40,859 bases of DNA from a virus (Duplodnaviria; Heunggongvirae; Uroviricota; Caudoviricetes). Where the stretch lies: the IMG/VR virus record IMGVR_UViG_2597489870_000008. The stretch is one strand, 5' to 3'. The notes beneath the pieces were generated by a model that was not told the DNA's origin, did not search any database, and was given only the letters and a program-made list of their open reading frames with translations. Position 1 is the first letter of the stretch; each line of letters opens with the position of its first letter. Made by a program: the position numbers and the translations under genes. Shown in pieces: positions 166-40,859 of the stretch.

Positions 166-408
166 TTAGTAACGCCAGCGGTCATAACGCTGATATTTCG
201 GCACTTTTGGTGCTTTAATCGCCTTAATAACCCACACCACCGCAATCGTCAGGAGTAACCACGGCAGCAACTTAATCATCAATGCCAGCATACCGCCGAG
301 GAACATAATGGCCGTCGCCACAACCAGCGCGGCGATAATGCCCAGCAACGAAACGCCGGTGACCATCAACATGACAAAAAAGCCAATCACAAAAAGTAGT
401 TCCAGCAT
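166..408 (-). CDS. pspG: Phage shock protein G (80 aa small membrane protein)
   Basis: The track ORF 166..618 contains an internal Met at 408 giving an 80-aa hydrophobic protein (MLELLFVIGFFVMLM...KYQRYDRWRY) that matches my recollection of E. coli PspG; the N-terminal extension in the track looks spurious. Confidence 0.7.
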   Translation of the reverse strand: MLELLFVIGFFVMLMVTGVSLLGIIAALVVATAIMFLGGMLALMIKLLPWLLLTIAVVWVIKAIKAPKVPKYQRYDRWRY

Positions 409-443
409 GATGCTCTCCCAAATATGAAATCTCTTGCAGGCAT

Positions 444-541: not shown

Positions 542-1579
542 TTAACGCTTATCCGCCACCAGTTTGAGCGCGTGTTCCAGCACGTTAATGTCAGCACCCG
601 CTTTATGGGCATTTTCACTTAAATAACGCCGCCACTGCCGCGCGCCAGGAATACCCTGGAACAAGCCCAGCATATGCCGGGTAATATGGCCGAGATACGT
701 CCCCTGGCTGAGTTCACGCTCAATGTACGGATACATGGCGCGCACTACCGCCACCGGATCGGCATCGGTATCCGAGGAACCAAAGATCTCCCGGTCTACC
801 GCCGCCAGAATACCCGGATTCTGATACGCCTCGCGCCCGACCATCACGCCATCCATATGTTGCAAATGCGCTTTAGCTTCTTCCAGCGACTTGATGCCAC
901 CGTTAATCGACATCGTCAGATGCGGAAAGTCACGCTTCAGTTGATACACACGCGGATAATCGAGCGGCGGGATTTCACGGTTTTCTTTCGGGCTTAACCC
1001 CGAAAGCCAGGCTTTACGTGCGTGGATGATGAACATCTCACACTCGCCTTTGCCGGAAACGGTGTTGATGAAATTGCAGAGAAATTCATAGCTGTCCTGG
1101 TCATCGATGCCAATACGCGTTTTCACCGTCACCGGAATCGACACCACATCGCGCATCGCTTTCACGCAGTCGGCAACCAGCTGCGCATTACCCATCAGAC
1201 ACGCACCAAACATGCCGTTCTGCACCCGGTCAGACGGGCAGCCGACATTCAGGTTGATCTCATCATATCCGCGCGCTTCTGCCAGCTTCGCACACTGCGC
1301 CAGCGCCGCCGGATCGCTACCGCCGAGTTGCAACGCTACCGGATGTTCTTCTTCACTGTACGCCAGGTAATCACCTTTACCGTGAATAATCGCCCCTGTG
1401 GTCACCATTTCGGTATACAGCAGCGTATTGCGGGAAAGCAGACGCAAGAAATAGCGGCAATGTCTGTCCGTCCAGTCGAGCATAGGAGCAATGCTAAACC
1501 GAGAATTCCAGTAAACACCAGTTTTTTCAGGCATCACGCTGGTTTGATTAATTTTTTGTGTTTCATGATTATCGTGCAT
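542..1579 (-). CDS. dusA: tRNA-dihydrouridine synthase A
   Basis: 345-aa ORF with a full-length Dus/TIM-barrel flavoprotein sequence (…[21 protein letters not shown]…VKTRIGID…) matching E. coli DusA; lies next to pspG as in E. coli. Confidence 0.9.
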
Positions 1580-1667: not shown

Positions 1668-2765
1668 ATGGCGTACTATAACATAGAGAAACGACTAAAA
1701 TCCGATGGCACACCACGCTATCGCTGTAATGTGATTATCAAAGAAAAAGGTGTTATCACTTACAGGGAAAGCAAAACATTCCCTAAACATGCTCATGCCA
1801 AAACATGGGGCACACAGAAAGTGATGGAATTAGATCTATATGGCATTCCATCATCAAATGCAGTTGACGGACTTACAGTCCGTGACTTACTACACAAATA
1901 TTTAAATGACCCAAATGCCGGAGGTAAAGCAGGCCGTACTAAAAGATATGTGCTGGAACTGCTTATGGATAGTGACATCTCCGCGATCAAACTATCTGAA
2001 CTGACAGAAAATGACGTAATTGAACATTGCAGGCTAAGAAACAACGCTGGTGCAGGTCCAGCTACAGTTAGCCACGATGTTAGTTATCTTGGCAGTGTTC
2101 TGGATGCTGCCAAACCTGTATATGGAATTAATTACACATCAAACCCAGCAAAAGCCGCTCGTCCATATCTACTTAAACTTGGTTTAATTGGTAAATCAAA
2201 TCGTCGTAATCGTAGACCGGCATCTGATGAACTGGACATGCTCATTGAAGGTCTTCAACAACGATCTACACATAAATGCTCAAAAATTCCGTTCGTTGAT
2301 ATCCTCAAATTTTCTGTGTGGTCATGTATGCGAATCGGTGAAGTATGCCGATTACGATGGGAGGATCTCGATCAGGAACAAAAATCCATACTCGTAAGAG
2401 ACAGGAAAGATCCACGTAAAAAGGAAGGCAACCATATGAAAGTAGCCTTGCTTGGGGAAGCCTGGGATATCGTCCAACGACAACCCAAAAAATCAGAATT
2501 CATTTTTCCATATAACAGCACTTCTGTTACTGCGGGATTCCAGAGGGTAAGAAGCAAATTAGGTATTAAAGATCTGCGATACCATGATTTGCGTAGAGAA
2601 GGGGCAAGTCGCTTATTTGAGGCTGGTTTTAGTATTGAGGAAGTCGCCCAGGTTACAGGGCATCGTTCATTAAACGTGCTATGGCAGGTATATACCGAAC
2701 TGTATCCGAAATCTTTACATAATCGTTTTGAAGAGCTCCAAAGGAGCAGAAATAAGACCTCTTGA
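1668..2765 (+). CDS. int: Tyrosine-type phage integrase (dusA-associated integrase class)
   Basis: 365-aa ORF with GAGG 7 nt upstream of the ATG; C-terminal HDLRREGASRL…GHRS…YTELY region typical of tyrosine recombinases; sits immediately next to the 5' end of dusA. Confidence 0.85.
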   Translation: MAYYNIEKRLKSDGTPRYRCNVIIKEKGVITYRESKTFPKHAHAKTWGTQKVMELDLYGIPSSNAVDGLTVRDLLHKYLNDPNAGGKAGRTKRYVLELLMDSDISAIKLSELTENDVIEHCRLRNNAGAGPATVSHDVSYLGSVLDAAKPVYGINYTSNPAKAARPYLLKLGLIGKSNRRNRRPASDELDMLIEGLQQRSTHKCSKIPFVDILKFSVWSCMRIGEVCRLRWEDLDQEQKSILVRDRKDPRKKEGNHMKVALLGEAWDIVQRQPKKSEFIFPYNSTSVTAGFQRVRSKLGIKDLRYHDLRREGASRLFEAGFSIEEVAQVTGHRSLNVLWQVYTELYPKSLHNRFEELQRSRNKTS

Positions 2766-2793
2766 CACTGTTTATCCATACAGTTAAAAATAA

Positions 2794-2813
2794 TACTGTA
2801 TACAAACACAGTA
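2794..2813. promoter_or_regulatory. LexA (SOS) box TACTGTATACAAACACAGTA upstream of the dinI-like gene
   Basis: Perfect CTGT-N8-ACAG palindrome with TA-rich centre, 14 nt upstream of the dinI-like ATG; a possible -35 TTGACA lies at 2762-2767. Confidence 0.6.
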
Positions 2814-2826
2814 TAGAGGGACTTTT

Positions 2827-3075
2827 ATGCGTATTGAAATCTGCATAGCCAAAGAAAAAATGACTAAAATGCCAACCGGTGCTGTGGATGCGTTAAAGGA
2901 AGAATTAACCCGACGCATCAGTAAACGTTATGACGATGTAGAGGTGATCGTAAAAGCCACCAGCAACGATGGCCTTTCTGTTACACGCACCGCAGATAAG
3001 GATTCTGCAAAAACTTTTGTTCAGGAGACTCTGAAAGATACCTGGGAATCTGCTGACGAGTGGTTTGTTCACTAA
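2827..3075 (+). CDS. dinI: DinI-family DNA damage-inducible protein
   Basis: 82-aa ORF ([11 protein letters not shown]…[15 protein letters not shown]) with the overall pattern of E. coli DinI (MRIEV…ETWESADDWFV); GAGGG RBS; preceded by a LexA box. Confidence 0.8.
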
Positions 3076-3218
3076 TTAACACGTAAAATCGGTAACGGCT
3101 GGAAATCATTCAATACTCGCACTATCGAAAGTTCGCCAGCCAGCCGCAGCACGTTCTTGCATACGACGTGGCTGCGGCTTCCAACATTAGACAAATAACT
3201 CTTTAAATTGCTTTTAAA

Positions 3219-3782
3219 TTATTTCGTTTGAATGCCAGTAACAGGAAATCGTTTATATAGGGTTGATAGCCCAACGTTATAGATACGTGCAACATAACGC
3301 CGTGATTTCCCTGCCGCTATGAGCGCTCCCATCTGTTGCCACTGCTCGTCGCTAAACTTCGGTCTACGCCCACCAATCCGGCCTTTGGATCTGGCAATAG
3401 CCAAACCAGCTAAAGTTCGCTCGCTATTCAAATCAGATTCATACTGCGCAGCAGAAAGAATATTACGGAAATTATAGCGACCACTTGCTGTTTTCAGGTC
3501 TACGCCATCTGTAATACTCCGAAAATTAACACCTTTTTCGTGCAGATTTTGAAACATCAATAGCGCATGCAGCACATTTCTCCCTATCCGATCTAACTTC
3601 CAGACAATCAACTCATCTCCACTTTTCATCACCGTAATTAATTCCTTTAACACAGGGCGATTAGCTGTTCTGCCACTGGCATATTCTTCATAAATTCGCT
3701 CACAGCCAGCTGACTCAAGTGCAAGACGTTGCAACTCTGTATCCTGATGATTTGTTGATACACGAACATACCCGTAAATCAT
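3219..3782 (-). CDS. Serine recombinase, DNA invertase of the Gin/Pin/Cin/Hin family
   Basis: 187-aa ORF beginning MIYGYVRVSTNHQDTELQ with GRTANRPVL, resolvase/invertase catalytic domain plus C-terminal HTH; sits next to an invertible tail-fibre segment. Confidence 0.85.
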   Translation of the reverse strand: MIYGYVRVSTNHQDTELQRLALESAGCERIYEEYASGRTANRPVLKELITVMKSGDELIVWKLDRIGRNVLHALLMFQNLHEKGVNFRSITDGVDLKTASGRYNFRNILSAAQYESDLNSERTLAGLAIARSKGRIGGRRPKFSDEQWQQMGALIAAGKSRRYVARIYNVGLSTLYKRFPVTGIQTK

Positions 3783-3787
3783 GAGTG

Positions 3788-3814
3788 CTTCTCCTGTTGT
3801 AAAAACAGGAGAAG
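3788..3814 (-). promoter_or_regulatory. 27-bp perfect palindrome (CTTCTCCTGTT-gtaaa-AACAGGAGAAG) that contains the invertase Shine-Dalgarno sequence
   Basis: 11-bp perfect inverted repeat with a 5-nt spacer directly upstream of the invertase ATG; the AGGAG lies in one arm, so a hairpin would sequester the RBS. Confidence 0.4.
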
Positions 3815-3841
3815 AGGCGAAATATCACCTGATTCAGAAAA

Positions 3842-3867
3842 ATATTTGAAAGGTTGGTTTGGGAGAA
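3842..3867. promoter_or_regulatory. gix/hix-like invertase crossover site (invertase-proximal)
   Basis: Reverse complement reads TTCTCCCAAACC-AA-CCTTTCAAATAT; it shares its first 15 bp with the site at 5722-5747 and resembles Mu gix (TTCCTGTAAACC-GA-GGTTTTGGATAA). Confidence 0.6.
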
Positions 3868-4215
3868 GCGGCGAAAAGGGATGTGGGTACAGGAGAAAAT
3901 CAGATACCGGATATGTCAGCCTGGAAAAGAAATCCGAGTTCTAATCGCTGGAGAAAATTGCCTGATGGAACCATCATTCAAATGGGAATATCAGCATCAG
4001 GGCCATTAGGCTCACCTGTAAATATCACCCTGCCGATATCTTTCAGCAATACCAATTATTGTGTTGTTGCATCGTACGATAATGCACGGTCAGGTGTGTC
4101 AACAATGGTTAGTTTTGCAGCGTTACCTGTTTCACCATCGCAATTTTCCCTGATGTCATCAGTGACTGAGCAAGGAATAAATCCTTTTGCTTACTGGATT
4201 GCTTTTGGAGATTAA
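3859..4215 (+). CDS. Alternative tail-fibre C-terminal variable segment (no start of its own; becomes fused to the constant N-terminus after inversion)
   Basis: Open frame begins exactly at the crossover site on a TTG codon (GLGE junction shared with the fibre gene); an inversion would join it in frame to the constant part at 6024..5735. Confidence 0.65.
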   Translation: MGEAAKRDVGTGENQIPDMSAWKRNPSSNRWRKLPDGTIIQMGISASGPLGSPVNITLPISFSNTNYCVVASYDNARSGVSTMVSFAALPVSPSQFSLMSSVTEQGINPFAYWIAFGD

Positions 4216-4218
4216 TAA

Positions 4219-4638
4219 ATGGACAGATACTTCTATTCACAAAAAGAAAATGGTTTTTTTACCGATTTAAATAAAGCACCTTCAGATGCTGTTGAGATAA
4301 CCACGGATGAATGGCTGTCACTACTGGATGGTCAGGATAATGGCATGAAAATAGTCAGCAATCAGGAGGGATATCCGGTTTTGACAGAGCAACCACCTTT
4401 ATCAAAAGAAAACCTTATTGCATTGGCAGAGTTGAAAAAAGGAAAACTTATTAATGAAGCCAACGAGCACATGAACAACAGGCAATGGCCTGGTAAAGCG
4501 GCGATTGGTCGCCTGAAAGGTGAGGAACTGGTGCAATATAATTTGTGGCTGGATTATCTGGACGCACTGGAACTGGTCGATACTTCCGGTGCGCCAGATA
4601 TTGAATGGCCTACGCCTCCGGCAGTTCAGGCCAGATGA
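4219..4638 (+). CDS. Tail-fibre assembly protein (alternative orientation)
   Basis: 139-aa ORF; the C-terminal DTSGAPDIEWPTPP motif is typical of Tfa proteins; directly downstream of the alternative fibre segment. Confidence 0.75.
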   Translation: MDRYFYSQKENGFFTDLNKAPSDAVEITTDEWLSLLDGQDNGMKIVSNQEGYPVLTEQPPLSKENLIALAELKKGKLINEANEHMNNRQWPGKAAIGRLKGEELVQYNLWLDYLDALELVDTSGAPDIEWPTPPAVQAR

Positions 4639-5203
4639 CGTCCGGCGCTGTGCTGGTATCTGTTGCCGTCACCGCGTCAATATAATCCAGCACAGCGTTA
4701 AGTCGGGTGTTTTCTGGCTGCGTCAGCTTCCGCCCGGCCTGTAATTTCAGTTGAATCAGACTGATGGAAGCCATTGCAGCATCAATCAGCGACTGGCGCT
4801 GTGCTTCTGCCGCTTCTACTGCGGCACCGTGTTGTGCCTCAGTATCTGTCACCCATTTCTCACCATCCCATTTATCATATGGCGTTAACGGTGAAAGCGT
4901 GACATAACCGTTTTTGATGGCACCGATATAATCCACTGTAACAGCTGCGCCATTTTCTGTTGAGTAAACAGTCTCATTGCGATGGTCTTCTTCATGGCTC
5001 CATCCCTTACCCGTAAATATTGCCACTCTTCCCGGAATGTATTCGCCCGGGTCAATACCAGTGGAACAGGCGGGCATACTTACGCCAGTATTAATATATT
5101 CATCAGACCAGCCCGTATATTCAGACGTTACTGCATCATAATAATAACAACGCATATCACCCGGTACTGTAGCCAGCCCATTTTCATCAAAAACAGGTTT
5201 CAT
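4610..5203 (-). CDS. Tail-fibre assembly protein (currently expressed orientation)
   Basis: 197-aa ORF starting [10 protein letters not shown] with C-terminal DTSTAPDVIWPELP; follows the tail-fibre gene and converges on the other tfa. Confidence 0.8.
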   Translation of the reverse strand: MKPVFDENGLATVPGDMRCYYYDAVTSEYTGWSDEYINTGVSMPACSTGIDPGEYIPGRVAIFTGKGWSHEEDHRNETVYSTENGAAVTVDYIGAIKNGYVTLSPLTPYDKWDGEKWVTDTEAQHGAAVEAAEAQRQSLIDAAMASISLIQLKLQAGRKLTQPENTRLNAVLDYIDAVTATDTSTAPDVIWPELPEA

Positions 5204-23864: not shown

Positions 23865-24185
23865 CTAAATCAGATCACCAATGTATTTTGCACTAATTGA
23901 AATTTGCATCTGAGGCATTCCGACCACAGATCCATTTAACAGGTAATCACGTCCTCGTTCCTGCAAAGAAAGACTCAATTCAAAGTTCTTTACCCCAGGG
24001 AAAACCGAGGTGACATTTAAATCATGCTGCGATACGCGCAGAATAAGTTGGCTACCGTCAATTTTTCCCTGATACGTAAAACCAAAATCTCCGCCGTTTA
24101 CTGCATTGTTTTTGACAACTACGGTACCATTACCAAAATCACGTTGATTGCTTCTGAAAACAACAAAATAGATACCATCTTTCAT
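23865..24185 (-). CDS. GrlR-like protein (moron between the lysis and packaging modules)
   Basis: 106-aa AT-rich ORF; its N-terminus MKDGIYFVVFRSN…GTVVVKNN…GGDFGFTYQGKI parallels GrlR (MKDGIYSIIFISN…GILIKNG…GGD…YQG); identity rests on recalled sequence. Confidence 0.5.
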   Translation of the reverse strand: MKDGIYFVVFRSNQRDFGNGTVVVKNNAVNGGDFGFTYQGKIDGSQLILRVSQHDLNVTSVFPGVKNFELSLSLQERGRDYLLNGSVVGMPQMQISISAKYIGDLI

Positions 24186-29168: not shown

Positions 29169-29558
29169 TCAGGCGGCTGCACCCGCCGTTTTCTCGTACT
29201 TACTGATAGTGATCTCGACCTTCCCTTCCGGGATAACCGGTCCCCACTCCACCAGCATTCTTTTCACCTGGCTGTCGTCTTCCCACACACCCGCGTGGGT
29301 CAGGGCGTCAAACAGCGCCTTGTTATAGTTGTCCAGATCGCGGATCCGGTTATCCGGAGGAAACAACACGATCTCCACTGAAGCAGGTGCCGACGTTGGT
29401 TTTGGCAGACGACGTAACTGCTCAACTATTGCTGCACACGCCGCGCTCTGGAATTTGCGCCCCGCCGCGCTTATCAGGCTCTTACCTGCAAACGCCCCTT
29501 TGTTGGGGTGTCGCCAGTACGTGTTCACGCTGGGCGGAAAAGGCAGTATTAGCTTCAT
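29169..29558 (-). CDS. rusA: Holliday junction resolvase RusA
   Basis: 129-aa ORF starting MKLILPFPPSVNTYW… with the acidic catalytic region DLDNYNKALFDAL. Confidence 0.85.
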   Translation of the reverse strand: MKLILPFPPSVNTYWRHPNKGAFAGKSLISAAGRKFQSAACAAIVEQLRRLPKPTSAPASVEIVLFPPDNRIRDLDNYNKALFDALTHAGVWEDDSQVKRMLVEWGPVIPEGKVEITISKYEKTAGAAA

Positions 29559-29881
29559 ACTTTCAGCTCCCTCTCATGTAACCAGTGGGCTGCACGCAGC
29601 CTGGCGTTTTCCTCACCGGCAAGCAGTGAGCGGATAATCCCGACCGCCTCGCTGTCGTCGTCCTTCACCGCGGTATGAAGCGTGATGCCCCGGGCCACGC
29701 CACGCTTTATCGTGATGACGCCTTTTTTCTCCAGTGCGCGAAGATGCTCCACCGCTGCATTCACTGAACGGTATCCCAGCATGGTTGCCACCTCCTGATT
29801 GGTTGGCGGGAAACCACGTTCTTTCTGATAAGAAATCAGCATATCCAGCACCTGCTGCTGGCATTGAGTTAACGTCGTCAT
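29555..29881 (-). CDS. LexA N-terminal DNA-binding-domain protein (no peptidase domain)
   Basis: 108-aa ORF; MTTLTQCQQQVLDMLISYQKERGFPPTNQEVATMLGYRSVNAAVEHLRALEKKGVITI aligns by eye with the LexA N-terminal domain ([58 protein letters not shown]). Confidence 0.65.
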   Translation of the reverse strand: MTTLTQCQQQVLDMLISYQKERGFPPTNQEVATMLGYRSVNAAVEHLRALEKKGVITIKRGVARGITLHTAVKDDDSEAVGIIRSLLAGEENARLRAAHWLHERELKV

Positions 29882-30531
29882 GCCGCCATCTCCCTGACCA
29901 GTTTTTCCGCCTGCTGGCGAACCTGCGCCAGAAACGCCTCACCACATGCCTCAAGTTCATCGCGCCCGATGTAGCTGATTGCCGGTCCCTTCCAGGTCTT
30001 GTCAAAAACAGCAATAGCACCAGCGAAAAAAGCTCCTGTCGGTACCTGCTTCTCGTCTTTCGGGATAAACCAGACAGGCAGTTCAAAACCAATACGCCCG
30101 CGAATAAAAGCAATATGATCTGCATCTTCCGGCCACCACACTTCGCTGGTGGCAGCTTTGATCAGGAAAACATAGCGCCCGCCCTTATCACGCATGGCAC
30201 TGGCATGTTTCATGATGTAACGCATGCCGGTGATGTATTGCCCCTCATGCTGACTGGCGCGGCTGTATGGGGGATTACCAAAGGCAGCACCTTTAAGCTC
30301 CGCAAGACGTTCTGACCAGTCATGCGCCAGCGCGTTGTCTTCCGCCGTGTAATACGCGGCACATTTGGCGTTATCACCGTCAGTGAACAGATCCAGAACA
30401 AACGGGCCAAACAGGGTGTTAATTCCCCAGAAAATGTTGTCCGGCGTGCGCCACTGATCGCCCACTTCCTTCAGTTCATGGGCTGGTTTGTTCCGCAGTT
30501 CCACCAGCGCCTGGCAATATTTATTACTCAT
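29878..30531 (-). CDS. Phage N6-adenine DNA methyltransferase (Dam-like)
   Basis: ORF with the NPPY motif (AFGNPPYSRA) characteristic of amino-methyltransferases; start at the Met at 30531 overlapping the upstream stop. Confidence 0.75.
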   Translation of the reverse strand: MSNKYCQALVELRNKPAHELKEVGDQWRTPDNIFWGINTLFGPFVLDLFTDGDNAKCAAYYTAEDNALAHDWSERLAELKGAAFGNPPYSRASQHEGQYITGMRYIMKHASAMRDKGGRYVFLIKAATSEVWWPEDADHIAFIRGRIGFELPVWFIPKDEKQVPTGAFFAGAIAVFDKTWKGPAISYIGRDELEACGEAFLAQVRQQAEKLVREMAA

Positions 30532-31025
30532 TAAGCCCCCACGTAATTCCCTGACAGATACCACTCTTCACCCGATGCAGCGCGCTTGCTGCTTTTCCGT
30601 AAGCACCGCTCACGACGCGCCAGAAAATTGTTTCGTTCTGGCTGGGAGTGGCTTTCACGGAATGCCGCCATCCACACGGTTGCAGCACGACGGTATAAGC
30701 CCCTGGACTCCAGTTCTTCCGCCTGGCGGGTCAGGCACAAAATCACACGGGGATCGTTAGTGCCGACATAGAAATTGCGCACAGATCTGGTTTCACGAAC
30801 TGGTTGTGGTTCCGGTTCCTGCGCTCTCTCAGTCAGGCGCGGGAAATGTCTGCGTGTATCTCCTTCACAACGGTGAGCCACACGCCCACTCTGACGTAAC
30901 TTGCTTGCTGACTGCAGAACGCGCTGCCGTGAGTAACCGGCAAAAGCATCCGCAATATCTCCGGAAGTACAGCCCGGATGGGCTTCAATGAATTTCTGAA
31001 CGTCATTCAAAAGACTCATGCTCAC
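30531..31025 (-). CDS. Regulatory protein with a PerC/Pch-like C-terminal region
   Basis: 164-aa ORF; C-terminal AEELESRGLYRRAATVWMAAF…RRERCLRKS matches the PerC-family signature as I recall it. Confidence 0.45.
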   Translation of the reverse strand: MSMSLLNDVQKFIEAHPGCTSGDIADAFAGYSRQRVLQSASKLRQSGRVAHRCEGDTRRHFPRLTERAQEPEPQPVRETRSVRNFYVGTNDPRVILCLTRQAEELESRGLYRRAATVWMAAFRESHSQPERNNFLARRERCLRKSSKRAASGEEWYLSGNYVGA

Positions 31026-33212: not shown

Positions 33213-33866
33213 ATGATGAACATGAGTGATCGTATTCGCCAAAGGCGAAAAGAACTGAACCTGACACAACAAGCACTGGCTGATTTGACTGGTGTGAACC
33301 GTGTCACGGTTACTGGATGGGAAAAGGACGACTACCAACCAAATGGAGCCAACCTTCAAGCCCTAGCCAACGCACTTAAATGCGATCCTCTGTGGCTTGT
33401 TAGCGGAAAAGGCTCGCCTGAACCAAAGATAAATCTAAAACCTGAAATATTCGCAGTTAAAAAAGTCCCCCTCATCTCGTGGGTTCAGGCGGGTTCATGG
33501 ACAATGACGGAGCCTGGTGTCAGGAAAGAAGATGCTGAAGAGTGGGTTTATACTACCGCCCTTGTATCAGAAATGGCATTTGCACTACGGGTCCGTGGTG
33601 ATTCAATGACCAATCCCCTCGGCTCACCATCGATACCAGAAGGTTCTATCGTTATCGTAGAGCCAGATATTATTGATACAGAGTGTATTAACGGAAAAAT
33701 CGTTGTTGCCCATATCAATGGTGGGCAAGAAGCGACACTCAAAAAATTTGTTGAGGACTGGCCGAACAGGTATCTCGTCCCACTAAATCCTAACTATAAA
33801 ACTATTGAATGCGGTGAGAACTGCAGAATAGTTGGTCTTGTCAAACAAGTAATAATGGATTTTTGA
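33213..33866 (+). CDS. CI-like prophage repressor (HTH plus LexA-like S24 peptidase domain)
   Basis: ORF with an N-terminal HTH (…LNLTQQALADLTGVNRVTVTGWEKDD…) and C-terminal S24 autocleavage region (…LRVRGDSMTNPLGSPSIPEGSIVIVEP…); no SD, so possibly leaderless. Confidence 0.85.
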   Translation: MMNMSDRIRQRRKELNLTQQALADLTGVNRVTVTGWEKDDYQPNGANLQALANALKCDPLWLVSGKGSPEPKINLKPEIFAVKKVPLISWVQAGSWTMTEPGVRKEDAEEWVYTTALVSEMAFALRVRGDSMTNPLGSPSIPEGSIVIVEPDIIDTECINGKIVVAHINGGQEATLKKFVEDWPNRYLVPLNPNYKTIECGENCRIVGLVKQVIMDF

Positions 33867-38484: not shown

Positions 38485-39519
38485 TCAGAAAAATATTTCA
38501 GCTTTTTTACCATCAAATACCCACTCGCTGGATAAGATTTTCATATTGCTAGCATAATTAAAAGTAAATTCTATCATTATCTTTTGTTTATCATTCGGAT
38601 AGTCGAAAACCTCTAATAAAAAGAAATCTCCTATAATCGAATAACAATGTATGCAACAGTTAGATAAATAACAATCACTGTCTCTGTCCTTAACAGTACC
38701 AATTCCAGCCGCCCAGAGTTTTTTGTTATCCACGTGAGTGGCTATTAGTTCTTTGACATCAGAATCACGAAAAGATAAAAACTTGACGAATACGGACTTA
38801 CTGTAAACAGAAATACCTCTGATAATTCCAGTTCGTTTCTTACATCTCCAGCATTTTGTAACTCGCGATTCTATTTTTGCAGTCAGCACATCCCCAACCT
38901 TTGGGAACCATAATAGCTTTCTGGCAAAAACACCCGCGATAAACTCCCTGACACTAATCCCAAACTGTGGTAGATACAAGTCCCCATTTTCATTCTGACG
39001 CACACCAAAAACAGGTAAATCGTAGCTATGGTATATATTCCCACCATGCTCTTTACTTCCTTTACGTAACTTTCGCAACCACAGTGCACGGACTCCTGAT
39101 GCGATATATCGTTTTTGACGTTCTTTAAATTCATCGTCTTTTTGCGGTGATAACTGTACTTCGAAAACCAGTTTCGCGTTATTTCTGGTACAAAACACAT
39201 CGGCAATCCATTGTTCTCCTGCTGGGGTCGCCCCTTGTTTTTCGGTAGTAACTGACCAGCCAGCATCACTGGCTAATTTTGCGATTAAGAATTTGAGATA
39301 TAAATGTTCTGCGCTTTCTTTCGCATACAGGCAATCGCTTTTGGATTTATGTGCAAAGTAATAGTTATTAAGTTTGCTTGTTTTAGGTATACCAGGCTGA
39401 CCACAGCACGACATAAACAAAGACTGGCTTTTATATGTCTGTTTAAGATATTCCCATTCCTGAGAGTTAAATTCAAAAGAATGAATTTCTTTTCCGTTAA
39501 GTGACGCTTTTAGTGGCAT
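38485..39519 (-). CDS. CoiA-like (competence protein CoiA family) putative nuclease
   Basis: 344-aa AT-rich ORF; N-terminal CCGQPGI…NYYFAHKSKSDCLYAKESAEHLYLKF fits the CoiA signature (Cys pair, FAH, ESxEH) as I recall it. Confidence 0.55.
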   Translation of the reverse strand: MPLKASLNGKEIHSFEFNSQEWEYLKQTYKSQSLFMSCCGQPGIPKTSKLNNYYFAHKSKSDCLYAKESAEHLYLKFLIAKLASDAGWSVTTEKQGATPAGEQWIADVFCTRNNAKLVFEVQLSPQKDDEFKERQKRYIASGVRALWLRKLRKGSKEHGGNIYHSYDLPVFGVRQNENGDLYLPQFGISVREFIAGVFARKLLWFPKVGDVLTAKIESRVTKCWRCKKRTGIIRGISVYSKSVFVKFLSFRDSDVKELIATHVDNKKLWAAGIGTVKDRDSDCYLSNCCIHCYSIIGDFFLLEVFDYPNDKQKIMIEFTFNYASNMKILSSEWVFDGKKAEIFF

Positions 39520-39870: not shown

Positions 39871-40290
39871 TTACTCATCATCAATAGATGATACGCAATA
39901 TTTATTTTTAAATTTAAGGTTCTTTGGCGTAACTTCATCAGATATATCAAAACCGTCCAGAATTCTATTGAATGTAGCTTCTGGCATATCATCATGAACA
40001 GAAATCTCACCCGATCGCTGCTTTCTAACCATGTTATCCACTCGCCAAATTATAGCTTCAGCGTAAACAACATAACTTGGATGCTTGATAAAGCGATGAT
40101 CACCGGAATTCAAAACGCAAGACGGATCGTGGGGGACACCATCCTTGATACTAGAAATATTAACAACTAAAACACAATAACAATCGTTAACGGGGTAATA
40201 AACAGGATCATTACAAATCACATGAAGATGATTGCATGGTCCAGTTGGGGCAAGCACAGTTCCTTTCCTGTATGGCTGATAATCCGTCAT
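39871..40290 (-). CDS. Uncharacterised 139-aa protein translationally coupled to a Panacea-domain gene; candidate PanT-type toxin or defence effector
   Basis: ATG overlaps the stop of the upstream DUF4065 gene (ATGA); AT-rich; Cys/His-rich (…GPCNHLHVICNDP…DPSCVLNSGDHRFIKHPSYV…); no known family recognised. Confidence 0.55.
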   Translation of the reverse strand: MTDYQPYRKGTVLAPTGPCNHLHVICNDPVYYPVNDCYCVLVVNISSIKDGVPHDPSCVLNSGDHRFIKHPSYVVYAEAIIWRVDNMVRKQRSGEISVHDDMPEATFNRILDGFDISDEVTPKNLKFKNKYCVSSIDDE

Positions 40291-40859
40291 GATAATTGCA
40301 AAGAAAATTCCTTAAGTTTCTGAGATTCTTCCATTTTGCCAATTATACGATTAGCCTCATCCTCGCTTTTACCCTCACTGATCAACATTTCTTTCAGGTC
40401 TATAGGCTTACGAGAATTGCCAGGATCGTGCCACTCTGGACAAACGCTTTCTAAATGCGTCATATTTGCGAGATCAAATCGGTTCATATGCCCATACCGA
40501 GAATAGATTTCATCTAAAATCCGGATATCTGCACGACTCAATTCATCAAAGACCTCGTCTGCATCCATTTCCCTCGGATCTGAACGCAACGATACATTAT
40601 GCCCGTTCGTCTCTATCAAGTTGTACCAGTAGTCACCAATGCCTTCAGCCTTACCGCGAATCAAGTTCAGCGTATTCGACATGACTGGTCCAAATTTCAT
40701 AGAGTAAAGGCTATCTTCGCCGATCATCCTGCCATGCTTCAAAATCGACTGGCGGTTAGACAGATAGAGCAGCTTCATCAATTTCAGATATGCCATGCGC
40801 CCACCTCTCTTAAGAAGTAGGTATGCAGCCATTTGAGCTACTTTTTCTTCGCAAAACAT
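40287..40859 (-). CDS. Panacea-domain (DUF4065, SocA/GepA-like) protein; candidate antitoxin (the N-terminus may lie at or beyond the window edge)
   Basis: …MAAYLLLKRGGRMAYLKLMKLLYLSNRQSILKHGRMIGEDSLYSMKFGPVMSNTLNLI… matches the DUF4065 pattern as I recall it; the ORF reaches the last base of the window. Confidence 0.6.
   Translation of the reverse strand: MFCEEKVAQMAAYLLLKRGGRMAYLKLMKLLYLSNRQSILKHGRMIGEDSLYSMKFGPVMSNTLNLIRGKAEGIGDYWYNLIETNGHNVSLRSDPREMDADEVFDELSRADIRILDEIYSRYGHMNRFDLANMTHLESVCPEWHDPGNSRKPIDLKEMLISEGKSEDEANRIIGKMEESQKLKEFSLQLS

Follow-up and report, generated by a model that had tools for sequence, protein, structure and literature searches.

Does the dinI-like gene at the edge of this prophage answer to the SOS response of its host, and what would its product do there? 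The DNA analysed (40,859 nt, hereafter the window) comes from E. coli ETEC H10407 and covers its pspG-dusA region, in which a prophage of ~39.6 kb interrupts dusA. A preliminary description had proposed an SOS-regulated dinI-like gene next to the integrase gene, preceded by a perfect LexA box, and had suggested that the phage may use it to tune RecA-dependent cleavage of its own repressor. The location is correct: the tyrosine integrase gene occupies positions 1668-2765 and the dinI-like ORF begins 61 nt downstream on the same strand (Table 1), with the int TGA stop codon (2763-2765) falling inside the -35 hexamer of the dinI-like gene.

The dinI-like gene encodes a DinI paralogue

The predicted product is a full-length member of the DinI family, as had been proposed. 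The match to Pfam PF06183 (DinI) covers profile positions 1-63 of 63 and, at 70.9 bits, exceeds the cut-off of 24.2 (E 1.1e-19). Further matches are phrog_189 (E 5.7e-31; "RecA filament binding protein DinI") and, over the full length, 1GHH/7YWA (E 3.7e-13). The NCBIfam DinI equivalog NF007893, by which chromosomal orthologues are recognized, scored 73 bits vs a cut-off of 111. By these profile scores the gene, located in a prophage, is a paralogue of chromosomal dinI and not its orthologue. The AlphaFold2 model (mean pLDDT 75) has the element order E-H-H-E-E-H, the DinI alpha/beta fold of a single ~80-aa domain with a long C-terminal helix. Foldseek aligned it to 1GHH (TM 0.76) and 7YWA (TM 0.75/0.79), and no other hits were obtained with E < 0.01.

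E. coli DinI contacts the RecA groove through a hydrophobic pocket (L13, L21, W71, W77, F78) and an acidic patch (E24, E69, D76) (Gao et al., 2023). The corresponding residues here are M15, L23, W73, W79, F80 and E26, D71, E78, respectively; all eight positions are kept, five identical and three with conservative replacements (L13M, E69D, D76E). Across 31 homologues, E26 and W79 never vary and L23, W73, and F80 hardly do, and the gene is under purifying selection (dN/dS 0.09-0.23). The conserved contact residues and the modelled fold suggest that the protein binds RecA filaments. Its affinity for the filaments and its effect on them may differ from those of DinI, because of the sub-cut-off NCBIfam score and the three replacements.

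Two predicted LexA operators lie on the promoter

LexA sites were scored by heterology index (HI). The E. coli matrix was recovered by regression from 123 sequences of PSOSP Table S1 and their HI values, with an exact and strand-symmetric fit (rms 2e-5, held-out rms 4e-5). Scoring was restricted to sites with intact CTG...CAG triplets. In the PSOSP table for E. coli K-12 the LexA-binding sites peak at an HI of ~7.3 and the low-HI class extends to ~13.6. The box quoted in the preliminary description (box 2) scored 5.22, the best LexA site of the window, and a second box absent from that description (box 1) scored 7.20; low HI and resemblance to TACTG(TA)5CAGTA mark both as putative operators of the E. 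coli LexA regulon. The window has no other CTGT-N8-ACAG site; among CTG-N10-CAG sites the next in rank has an HI of 16.3, and sites with HI <= 7.21 were found in 0 of 300 shuffles. The box 2 sequence occurs once in the window and in 0 of 100 shuffles. It had been called perfect, which overstates the case: it scores as a strong operator with every invariant arm position intact, but it matches the consensus at 17 of 20 positions.

Both boxes lie within one 61-nt spacer, exactly on the promoter (Table 1). The -10 element of this promoter is weak (4/6); the mEp460 record also has an annotation for this promoter. The core of box 1 (CTGT-N8-ACAG, 2768-2783) occupies the spacer between TTGACA and the -10 element. 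Box 2 begins 3 nt past the -10 element and spans the transcription start, predicted near 2797-2799, together with the first part of the 5'UTR; 13 nt separate its end from the ATG. The earlier statement that box 2 overlaps the likely promoter therefore holds for the predicted start that it covers but not for the promoter hexamers, neither of which it touches. The placement of the pair is that of promoter-occluding operators. We found no basis for same-face cooperative binding of LexA at the two boxes, whose centres are 28 bp (~2.7 helical turns) apart; the operators of lexA itself, unlike these, are ~21 bp apart.

Table 1. Features of the dinI-like locus (window coordinates).
Feature	Position	Strand	Basis
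-35 hexamer TTGACA	2762..2767	+	Promoter scan, TTGACA-18-AAAAAT, 10/12 matches
LexA box 1 (predicted, promoter-proximal operator) CACTGTTTATCCATACAGTT	2766..2785		Pattern match, HI 7.20
-10 region TAAAAAT	2785..2791	+	TAAAAA with 17-nt spacer or AAAAAT with 18-nt spacer
LexA box 2 (predicted; quoted in the preliminary description) TACTGTATACAAACACAGTA	2794..2813		Exact match, HI 5.22
Shine-Dalgarno AGAGGG	2815..2820	+	Read from sequence, 6 nt before ATG
dinI-like CDS, 82 aa	2827..3075	+	Pfam PF06183, phrog_189, 1GHH/7YWA, AlphaFold2 fold
Conserved 3'UTR	3076..3141	+	Predicted stem GGCUGG/CCAGCC, 3097-3102 with 3136-3141
14-pair hairpin, probable intrinsic terminator	3142..3179	+	RNAalifold covariation

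Wherever upstream sequence is available among closely related loci (57 cases), both boxes are kept. Among 19 distinct promoters, none of the 16 box-core positions varies, while 15 of the 49 other positions between the -35 hexamer and the ATG do. More divergent homologues were gathered by tblastn against phage records (a single-protein scan of genome contigs yielded only four near-identical loci and was uninformative on divergence), and a low-HI box was present 33-62 nt upstream in 11 of 13 phage dinI-like genes of 37-95% identity. Weaker boxes also occur: those of phage VT1-Sakai score 11.4 and 9.5, and box 1 of BP-4795 is decayed. Together with the LexA control demonstrated by experiment for the Gifsy homologues (see below), the recurrent box and the two low-HI predicted operators on promoter core and start give good in silico support to the proposal that the gene is SOS-regulated.

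The gene is part of a self-contained cassette

The CDS is followed by a conserved 3'UTR (fold z = -3.2), which is ~90% identical to the 3' flank of dinL in phage phi80 although the CDS is only 29% identical. The predicted GGCUGG/CCAGCC stem of this region has no covariation. In the adjoining hairpin, four pairs show compensatory changes across 11 variants (RNAalifold). Its U-tract is weak in the H10407 copy (UUCC) and better in relatives, and a simple terminator scan did not call it; the transcript would end near 3180-3185. Rfam reported no family at gathering threshold anywhere in the window; we disregarded a weak sub-threshold match to CssrB on the minus strand of the hairpin (22 bits vs 76). 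A literature search for the conserved 3'UTR as an sRNA found nothing relevant.

Comparison of several unrelated contexts placed the left border of the conserved unit at the -35 hexamer and the right border directly past the hairpin, where sequences diverge in every context; the flanks differ. Here the convergent pin gene lies beyond the hairpin. Promoter, boxes, gene, 3'UTR, and probable hairpin terminator are a self-contained cassette, with the sharp boundaries and varied contexts of a moron, its own promoter and its own terminator, the latter with a weak U-tract in this copy. The cassette is present in 1832 of 5426 complete E. coli genomes, in up to seven copies per genome, and is carried on myovirus, siphovirus, and Stx phage backbones as well as by mEp460 and SKA5.

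Comparison with known SOS-controlled phage genes

The protein is 95% identical to H0001 of Stx1 phage VT1-Sakai (GenBank AP000400), and 95-100% identical proteins are encoded in the same layout by VT1-Sakai, mEp460, SKA5, and many Stx1/Stx2 phages: a TTGACA promoter with two box positions separated by 28-29 bp, followed after the gene by this 3'UTR and hairpin. In the VT1-Sakai record a "putative promoter" and a "putative SOS box" are entered, the latter for the downstream box only. Both VT1-Sakai boxes are weaker than those of the H10407 copy (7.2 and 5.2). The VT1-Sakai cassette abuts the yehV attachment site without an intervening integrase gene, whereas a dusA-type integrase gene lies upstream here, and its promoter note adds a small downstream gene, H0002, whereas the unit here is monocistronic. 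In phi80/Lula (JX871397) the DinI-family gene dinL lies near pin and tail-fibre genes behind a TTGACA promoter, with a LexA box right after the -35 hexamer (a "predicted LexA binding site" in the record) and a nearly identical 3'UTR and terminator; dinL differs in having a single box (HI 4.68) and in its protein sequence.

The experimental precedent comes from Salmonella. The dinI homologues of prophages Gifsy-1, -2, and -3 likewise encode DinI paralogues and follow a LexA box; their expression depends on this box, responds to mitomycin, and rises 4.6- to 23-fold with nalidixic acid, and non-polar dinI deletions in Gifsy-1 and Gifsy-3 left prophage induction unchanged (Lemire et al., 2011, PMC3121763; Merida-Floriano et al., 2021, PMC8072944). 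In Gifsy, dinI heads a dinI-antirepressor-irsA operon, which is required for the induction of phages with non-cleavable repressors, and its one box lies ~19 nt from the ATG. In contrast, the gene studied here stands alone behind two boxes in a prophage with a cleavable CI-type repressor. E. coli DinI (PDB 1GHH; RecA complex 7YWA) is also LexA-regulated and has the same length and fold, with ~39% identity, but the protein here is encoded on a mobile cassette with two operators. Tum of coliphage 186, another product of a LexA-controlled phage gene, is DinI-like in its C-terminal half; it has 146 aa, and the N-terminal half in which its antirepressor activity resides is missing from the 82-aa protein.

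Proposed mechanism

We concluded that the dusA-integrated H10407 prophage in all likelihood carries, at its attL edge, a DinI-paralogue cassette that is autonomous and SOS-inducible (a "moron"). In an undamaged lysogen, host LexA would sit on both operators of the sigma-70-type promoter, blocking RNA polymerase binding from box 1 in the -35/-10 spacer and covering the transcription start from box 2. DNA damage would generate active RecA filaments and thereby LexA self-cleavage, so that the cassette would be transcribed from an otherwise silent prophage independently of the phage CI/Cro switch. Operator scores, operator placement, and the experiments on homologues all point to this LexA binding and damage induction. 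The 82-aa product would then bind in the groove of active RecA filaments in the manner of E. coli DinI, with its hydrophobic pocket receiving the L2 residue F203 and its acidic patch adding to the contact. It would raise the DinI dose of the cell, stabilizing RecA filaments and competing with UmuD, lambda-CI-type repressors, and other clients of the groove that are cleaved slowly. The physiological role of DinI itself is described as concentration-dependent and elusive (review; Lemire et al., 2011, PMC3121763).

Which consequence of such expression has been selected for can be answered in several ways. One possibility, which we hold tentatively, is that the cassette is cargo of benefit to the host (lysogenic conversion): the extra DinI made in the SOS response would mainly help the damaged lysogen, stabilizing RecA filaments and restraining UmuD processing and mutagenesis, and would not meaningfully affect induction of the carrier prophage. 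The moron architecture, the edge position, the presence in a third of E. coli genomes in up to seven copies, and the unchanged induction of the Gifsy deletion mutants argue for this role. Control by LexA rather than CI argues in the same direction, since it would allow expression in non-induced lysogens, and the phi80 record ties the family to msgA, a macrophage survival gene. On the other hand, such cargo would be redundant with chromosomal dinI, and conservation in functional inducible phages fits a phage-side role equally well.

The phage-side role put forward in the preliminary description is tuning of the RecA-stimulated self-cleavage of the prophage's own repressor. In this way it would determine when, or at what threshold, induction occurs, most probably with a delay caused by competition for the RecA groove. 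The S24-type CI repressor that this role presupposes is indeed encoded in the prophage: the product of window positions 33213-33866 can be aligned with lambda CI from end to end and shows the VQAG cleavage site and both residues of the Ser/Lys dyad (serine of GDSM, lysine of LKK). Tuning of its cleavage by the phage DinI is structurally plausible because DinI and lambda CI bind the same elements of the RecA groove, F203 of the L2 loop and K232/R243/K245. Phages such as VT1-Sakai, mEp460, and phi80, which show classical RecA-dependent induction, carry the cassette in stand-alone form, with two boxes (a single one in phi80). Tuning of this kind has already been suggested in the literature for Stx2a phages. 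Nevertheless, we give this role a slightly lower probability than the host-benefit cargo. Exchange of the cassette does not follow that of the immunity regions, and it recurs in unrelated backbones with a cargo-like edge position; related dinI genes also occur in phages with uncleaved repressors (Gifsy), where the two non-polar deletions were without effect on induction; DinI is already made by the host; and stoichiometric DinI stabilizes RecA filaments, which could favour cleavage rather than hinder it.

The window also encodes a LexA-domain protein. Located in the early-right operon (29555-29881, minus strand), it has 108 aa, consists of a LexA DNA-binding domain without the S24 cleavage domain, and retains four of five LexA DNA-contact residues; a literature search for a phage protein with only a LexA domain found nothing relevant. 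The gene for this protein and the dinI-like gene are not strictly linked: the LexA-domain gene also occurs in Shigella phages SfV, SfII, and SfIV, and the main organism groups with DinI-like matches included no Shigella phage. Going by sequence similarity, the dual-operator DinI-like cassette and the 108-aa protein might form a two-part SOS-takeover circuit, an idea to which we assign a low probability. If it were true, the DinI-like protein, made once LexA falls, would set the amount of damage needed for CI cleavage by occupying RecA-filament grooves; once the lytic genes are on, the 108-aa protein would re-occupy SOS boxes, including both boxes of the dinI-like promoter, and would shut the host SOS regulon regardless of RecA activity.

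Two further readings are very improbable. The 82-aa protein could be a LexA-controlled antirepressor that binds the phage repressor, like 186 Tum or Gifsy GfoA/GftA, as LexA-controlled antirepressor loci are linked to dinI homologues in 186, PSP3, Fels-2, and Gifsy and the PHROG profile that it hits is Tum-sized (151 positions). We rejected this reading on anatomy, because no fused or co-transcribed antirepressor is present: only profile positions 71-149 (the DinI half) are covered, the N-terminal part is missing, and there is no plus-strand ORF of at least 30 aa in 3076-3218, before the hairpin and the convergent pin gene. The cleavable lambda-CI-type repressor of this prophage would need no antirepressor in any case. 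Lastly, it is hardly credible that the boxes arose by chance or are relics and that the gene is silent or constitutively expressed, for despite the weaker boxes of VT1-Sakai and the decayed one of BP-4795, shuffling never produced comparable scores, both sites fall exactly on the promoter in one short spacer, their cores are invariant across relatives, boxes recur across divergent homologues, and homologues of the gene are proven SOS genes.

Biological meaning of the cassette

The SOS-controlled DinI-like cassette, our preferred reading of the locus, is real but ordinary: it is common in E. coli prophages and already known. Annotations of DinI paralogues under SOS-box control at the edges of prophages date from 2000 (VT1-Sakai) and 2012 (phi80), and experiments on the Salmonella Gifsy prophages have demonstrated such genes. 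The two good putative operators of this widespread allele predict tighter repression and later firing than for host dinI. Since about one in three complete E. coli genomes has the cassette, and some have more than one copy, the SOS dosage of DinI would vary by strain, and such differences could affect prophage and Shiga-toxin induction as well as SOS mutagenesis under quinolones. The cassette would also be a clean system for asking whether phage DinI alters the cleavage of CI-type repressors.

Genomic setting of the dinI-like gene

The window is 100% identical to the chromosome of E. coli ETEC H10407 (NC_017633.1) and spans pspG and dusA, followed by a prophage of ~39.6 kb that has integrated into dusA at its 5' end. 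The dusA gene is full-length despite the insertion, its 5' end presumably being supplied by the phage, and a dusA 5' remnant is annotated at the opposite prophage end, just beyond the window (6174-6278 of L004, an H10407 chromosomal locus). The host lexA-dinF operon is found ~4 kb beyond the attR end (L004 1615-3621), most likely as a mere consequence of the dusA/lexA chromosomal neighbourhood.

Features of the prophage and of related loci (window positions unless a locus is named)
Feature	Coordinates	Strand	Remark
dusA	542-1579	-	full-length
Tyrosine integrase gene (int)	1668-2765	+	first gene inward from attL; dusA-associated
-35 hexamer, TTGACA	2762-2767		
LexA box 1	2766-2785		
-10 element	2785-2791		
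LexA box 2	2794-2813		
dinI-like gene	2827-3075	+	second gene inward from attL
Conserved 3'UTR	3076-3141		
Hairpin	3142-3179		
Pin-type invertase gene	3219-3782	-	third gene inward from attL
gp53-like tail-fibre C-terminal fragment	3859-4215	+	
Tail-fibre-assembly gene	4219-4638	+	
Tail-fibre-assembly gene	4610-5203	-	opposite orientation to the preceding
Tail-fibre, Mu/SfV-type contractile-tail, HK97-type head, lysis and late-regulation genes		-	single orientation throughout
GrlR-family regulator gene	23865-24185	-	between lysis and terminase genes
108-aa ORF	29555-29881	-	early-right operon, between Dam-like methyltransferase gene and rusA
PerC-family regulator gene	30531-31025	-	early-right operon
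lambda-CI-like repressor gene	33213-33866	+	immunity region, with a P22-Cro-like gene
Early-left operon			directed toward attR
CoiA-like nuclease-domain gene	38485-39519	-	attR-end cargo
Panacea-domain gene	40287-40859	-	attR-end cargo
ATGCCCCA motifs, phi80 locus (L002)	3590-3640		upstream of dinI-like promoter
ATGCCCCA motifs, another cassette-carrying locus (L099)	390-430		upstream of dinI-like promoter
ATGCCCCA motifs, another cassette-carrying locus (L049)			upstream of dinI-like promoter

The Pin-type invertase gene stands beside tail-fibre genes, and 3219-5203 has the appearance of an invertible segment for host range, as in the Mu Gin, P1 Cin and e14 Pin systems. In its GrlR- and PerC-family genes (RefSeq annotation), this ETEC prophage carries two homologues of regulators that control virulence in attaching-effacing E. 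coli. The CoiA-like (Pfam CoiA_nuc, 7.4e-10) and Panacea-domain (RefSeq annotation) genes, which run opposite to the early-left operon, may have a defence or toxin-antitoxin function.

Two LexA boxes in the dinI-like promoter

The preliminary description reported an SOS-regulated dinI-like gene beside the integrase gene, with a "perfect" LexA box overlapping its promoter. The gene does lie 61 nt past int, whose TGA stop falls inside the -35 hexamer of a promoter scoring 10/12. The 20-mer in question (box 2) occurs once in the window and in 0 of 100 shuffles. It is not perfect, matching TACTG(TA)5CAGTA at 17 of 20 positions with all arm positions intact and three central positions different; it starts 3 nt past the -10 element, so that it covers the predicted transcription start but is clear of the promoter hexamers. 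When the whole 40.9 kb was searched for CTGT-N8-ACAG, only two sites were found (2768-2783 and 2796-2811), both in the int/dinI-like spacer. The former belongs to a box missed earlier, box 1 (CACTGTTTATCCATACAGTT), which occupies the spacer between the -35 and -10 elements.

Matrix scoring of the boxes, the check proposed at that time, was carried out with the heterology index (HI). The PSOSP paper tabulates HI values for candidate SOS boxes of E. coli K-12 (Supplementary Table S1); a position-additive model, trained on 123 of these boxes, reproduced their values exactly (rms 2e-5, held-out rms 4e-5) and was strand-symmetric. The recovered matrix, which covers sites with intact CTG/CAG triplets, gives HI 5.22 for box 2 and 7.20 for box 1. 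Operators in the same table that we take to be those of umuDC, recA, sulA, uvrB and uvrA have HI values of 2.77, 4.31, 4.65, 6.11 and 6.98, respectively. According to the PSOSP paper, HI peaks near 7.3 for LexA-binding and near 22 for non-binding sites, and in the best clustering the two classes part between 13.6 and 13.9. Third among the window's CTG-N10-CAG sites is one with HI 16.3, and no site with HI <= 7.21 appeared in 300 shuffles. Because of these HI values, the next-best site and the shuffle result, both boxes are predicted to be strong-to-average LexA operators; among sites with intact CTG/CAG triplets, the prophage has no predicted LexA target other than the dinI-like promoter. The observation holds, at a level far above chance expectation.

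Regulation of the gene by the SOS response is very probable, and such control is already known for the cassette and its relatives. The VT1-Sakai record (AP000400) marks a "putative promoter" and a "putative SOS box" at H0001, which encodes a 95% identical protein; a "predicted LexA binding site" is marked upstream of dinL in the phi80 record, and the mEp460 record annotates the same promoter as here. Damage-dependent activation of Gifsy dinI homologues needs the upstream LexA-box region, and a Gifsy DinI homologue accumulates after mitomycin C (Lemire et al., 2011; PMC3121763), while a Salmonella SOS-regulon study found three Gifsy dinI genes induced 4.6- to 23-fold. New from our analysis are the second operator, the limits of the cassette and its frequency among E. 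coli genomes.

Distribution and boundaries of the cassette

The 341-bp cassette is present in 1832 of 5426 complete E. coli genomes, at up to 7 places per genome, and DinI-like genes occur in 133 phage records. Both boxes are kept in 57/57 near-identical loci with upstream sequence, where box substitutions are confined to outer positions 1, 2, 19 and 20 or give a better match. In a set of 19 distinct close promoter variants, the CTGT/ACAG cores vary at 0 of 16 positions and the remaining positions from -35 to ATG at 15 of 49 (hypergeometric estimate, p about 0.008); since these variants are related, the conservation suggests only a mild footprint. A low-HI box (HI 1.5-11) is located 33-62 nt upstream in 11 of 13 divergent dinI-like genes (37-95% protein identity; E. 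coli, Klebsiella, Salmonella and Aeromonas phages), the two exceptions being a gene second in its operon and a copy rearranged beside IS629. The two-box layout is limited to the subfamily of this gene (PhiR12_5, VT1-Sakai), with box 1 decayed in BP-4795. The Gifsy-like subfamily carries one strong box and a small ORF after the gene, in line with the described Gifsy dinI-antirepressor operons.

The stop codon is followed by a conserved 3'UTR of ~65 nt and a hairpin (fold z = -3.2) with compensatory changes at four pairs among 11 sequence variants; a U-rich run comes next in most variants, but the window copy has just UUCC there. Similarity ends directly past the hairpin in every context examined and begins at the -35 hexamer in loci with an upstream gene other than this integrase. 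Downstream of the dinI-like gene, no + strand ORF of at least 30 aa was found between 3076 and 3218. Given its own promoter and hairpin, the sharp boundaries and the lack of a following + strand ORF, this unit of promoter, two operators, one gene and probable terminator is a classic moron.

The 3'UTR and the 3' flank of phi80 dinL (L002 3990-4060) share ~90% identity, the proteins being only 29% identical. Within the 3'UTR, an invariant stem GGCUGG/CCAGCC precedes the terminator hairpin. The 3'UTR could serve as a linker for recombination or give rise to a small RNA; it had no Rfam match, and a literature search on it gave nothing. Where the cassette directly abuts the attachment site (phi80, VT1-Sakai and others), repeated ATGCCCCA motifs just upstream of the -35 hexamer are possible arm-type sites for integrase binding; the window, where int is upstream, lacks them.

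The DinI-like protein

Assignment of the 82-aa product to the DinI family is secure, as first described: it matches Pfam DinI at 70.9 bits (threshold 24.2) and PHROG 189 ("RecA filament binding protein DinI"), and over its whole length aligns with E. coli DinI (PDB 1GHH and RecA complex 7YWA, E 3.7e-13). An AlphaFold2 model from 22 homologues (mean pLDDT 75) has DinI as its sole significant structural match, with TM of 0.76 to 1GHH and 0.75/0.79 to 7YWA. The RecA-DinI cryo-EM study describes L13, L21, W71, W77 and F78 as the pocket for RecA F203, and E24, E69 and D76 as lying opposite RecA K232, R243 and K245. These residues align to M15, L23, W73, W79 and F80 and to E26, D71 and E78 here, at positions invariant or nearly so among 31 homologues. 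Pairwise dN/dS is 0.09-0.23 against alleles at 60-95% amino-acid identity. With 73 bits, the protein does not reach the cut-off of 111 of the NCBIfam equivalog for chromosomal DinI and is a paralogue of it, not the orthologue.

Proposed mode of action

LexA on box 1 would keep RNA polymerase off the spacer, and LexA on box 2 would block the start site. Binding at the two boxes is assumed to be independent, not cooperative, because their centres are 28 bp (about 2.7 helical turns) apart. The E. coli host dinI promoter has a single operator; compared with it, a promoter at which both operators must empty would have a lower basal level and a later and steeper switch-on. LexA cleavage would allow expression while the prophage is still repressed, and the product should, like DinI, occupy the groove of the RecA filament. 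At stoichiometric levels DinI stabilises the filament and at high levels it inhibits coprotease functions, and extra DinI could compete with slowly cleaved clients.

It had been proposed that the phage may tune RecA-dependent cleavage of its own S24-type CI. Such a target exists, since the prophage repressor is a full-length lambda-CI homologue (E 7e-25 to 3BDN) with a VQAG cleavage site, a GDSM catalytic serine and an LKK lysine. The net effect may be on the phage induction threshold or, about equally likely, on host survival and mutagenesis. [quoted passage not shown] A Tum- or Gifsy-type antirepressor role is disfavoured, as the N-terminal half of Tum-sized relatives is missing and nothing is co-transcribed.

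A LexA-domain-only protein in the same prophage

The 108-aa ORF of the early-right operon encodes a LexA DNA-binding domain (Pfam LexA_DNA_bind, E 2.9e-19; gapless alignment to LexA residues 2-69) with a C-terminal tail of ~40 aa and without the S24 cleavage domain. Four of five LexA DNA-contact residues are kept (S39, N41, A42 and E45), E44 being replaced by V. This family (phrog_362) is common in enterobacterial prophages and phages (SfV orf42, SfII, SfIV, mEp460, cdtI and Stx2c phages), and our literature search found no functional study of it. The protein may be a LexA mimic that resists cleavage and has SOS boxes as its sites of action; if it does bind them, then, speculatively, the phage would offer it a single target, the dinI-like promoter.
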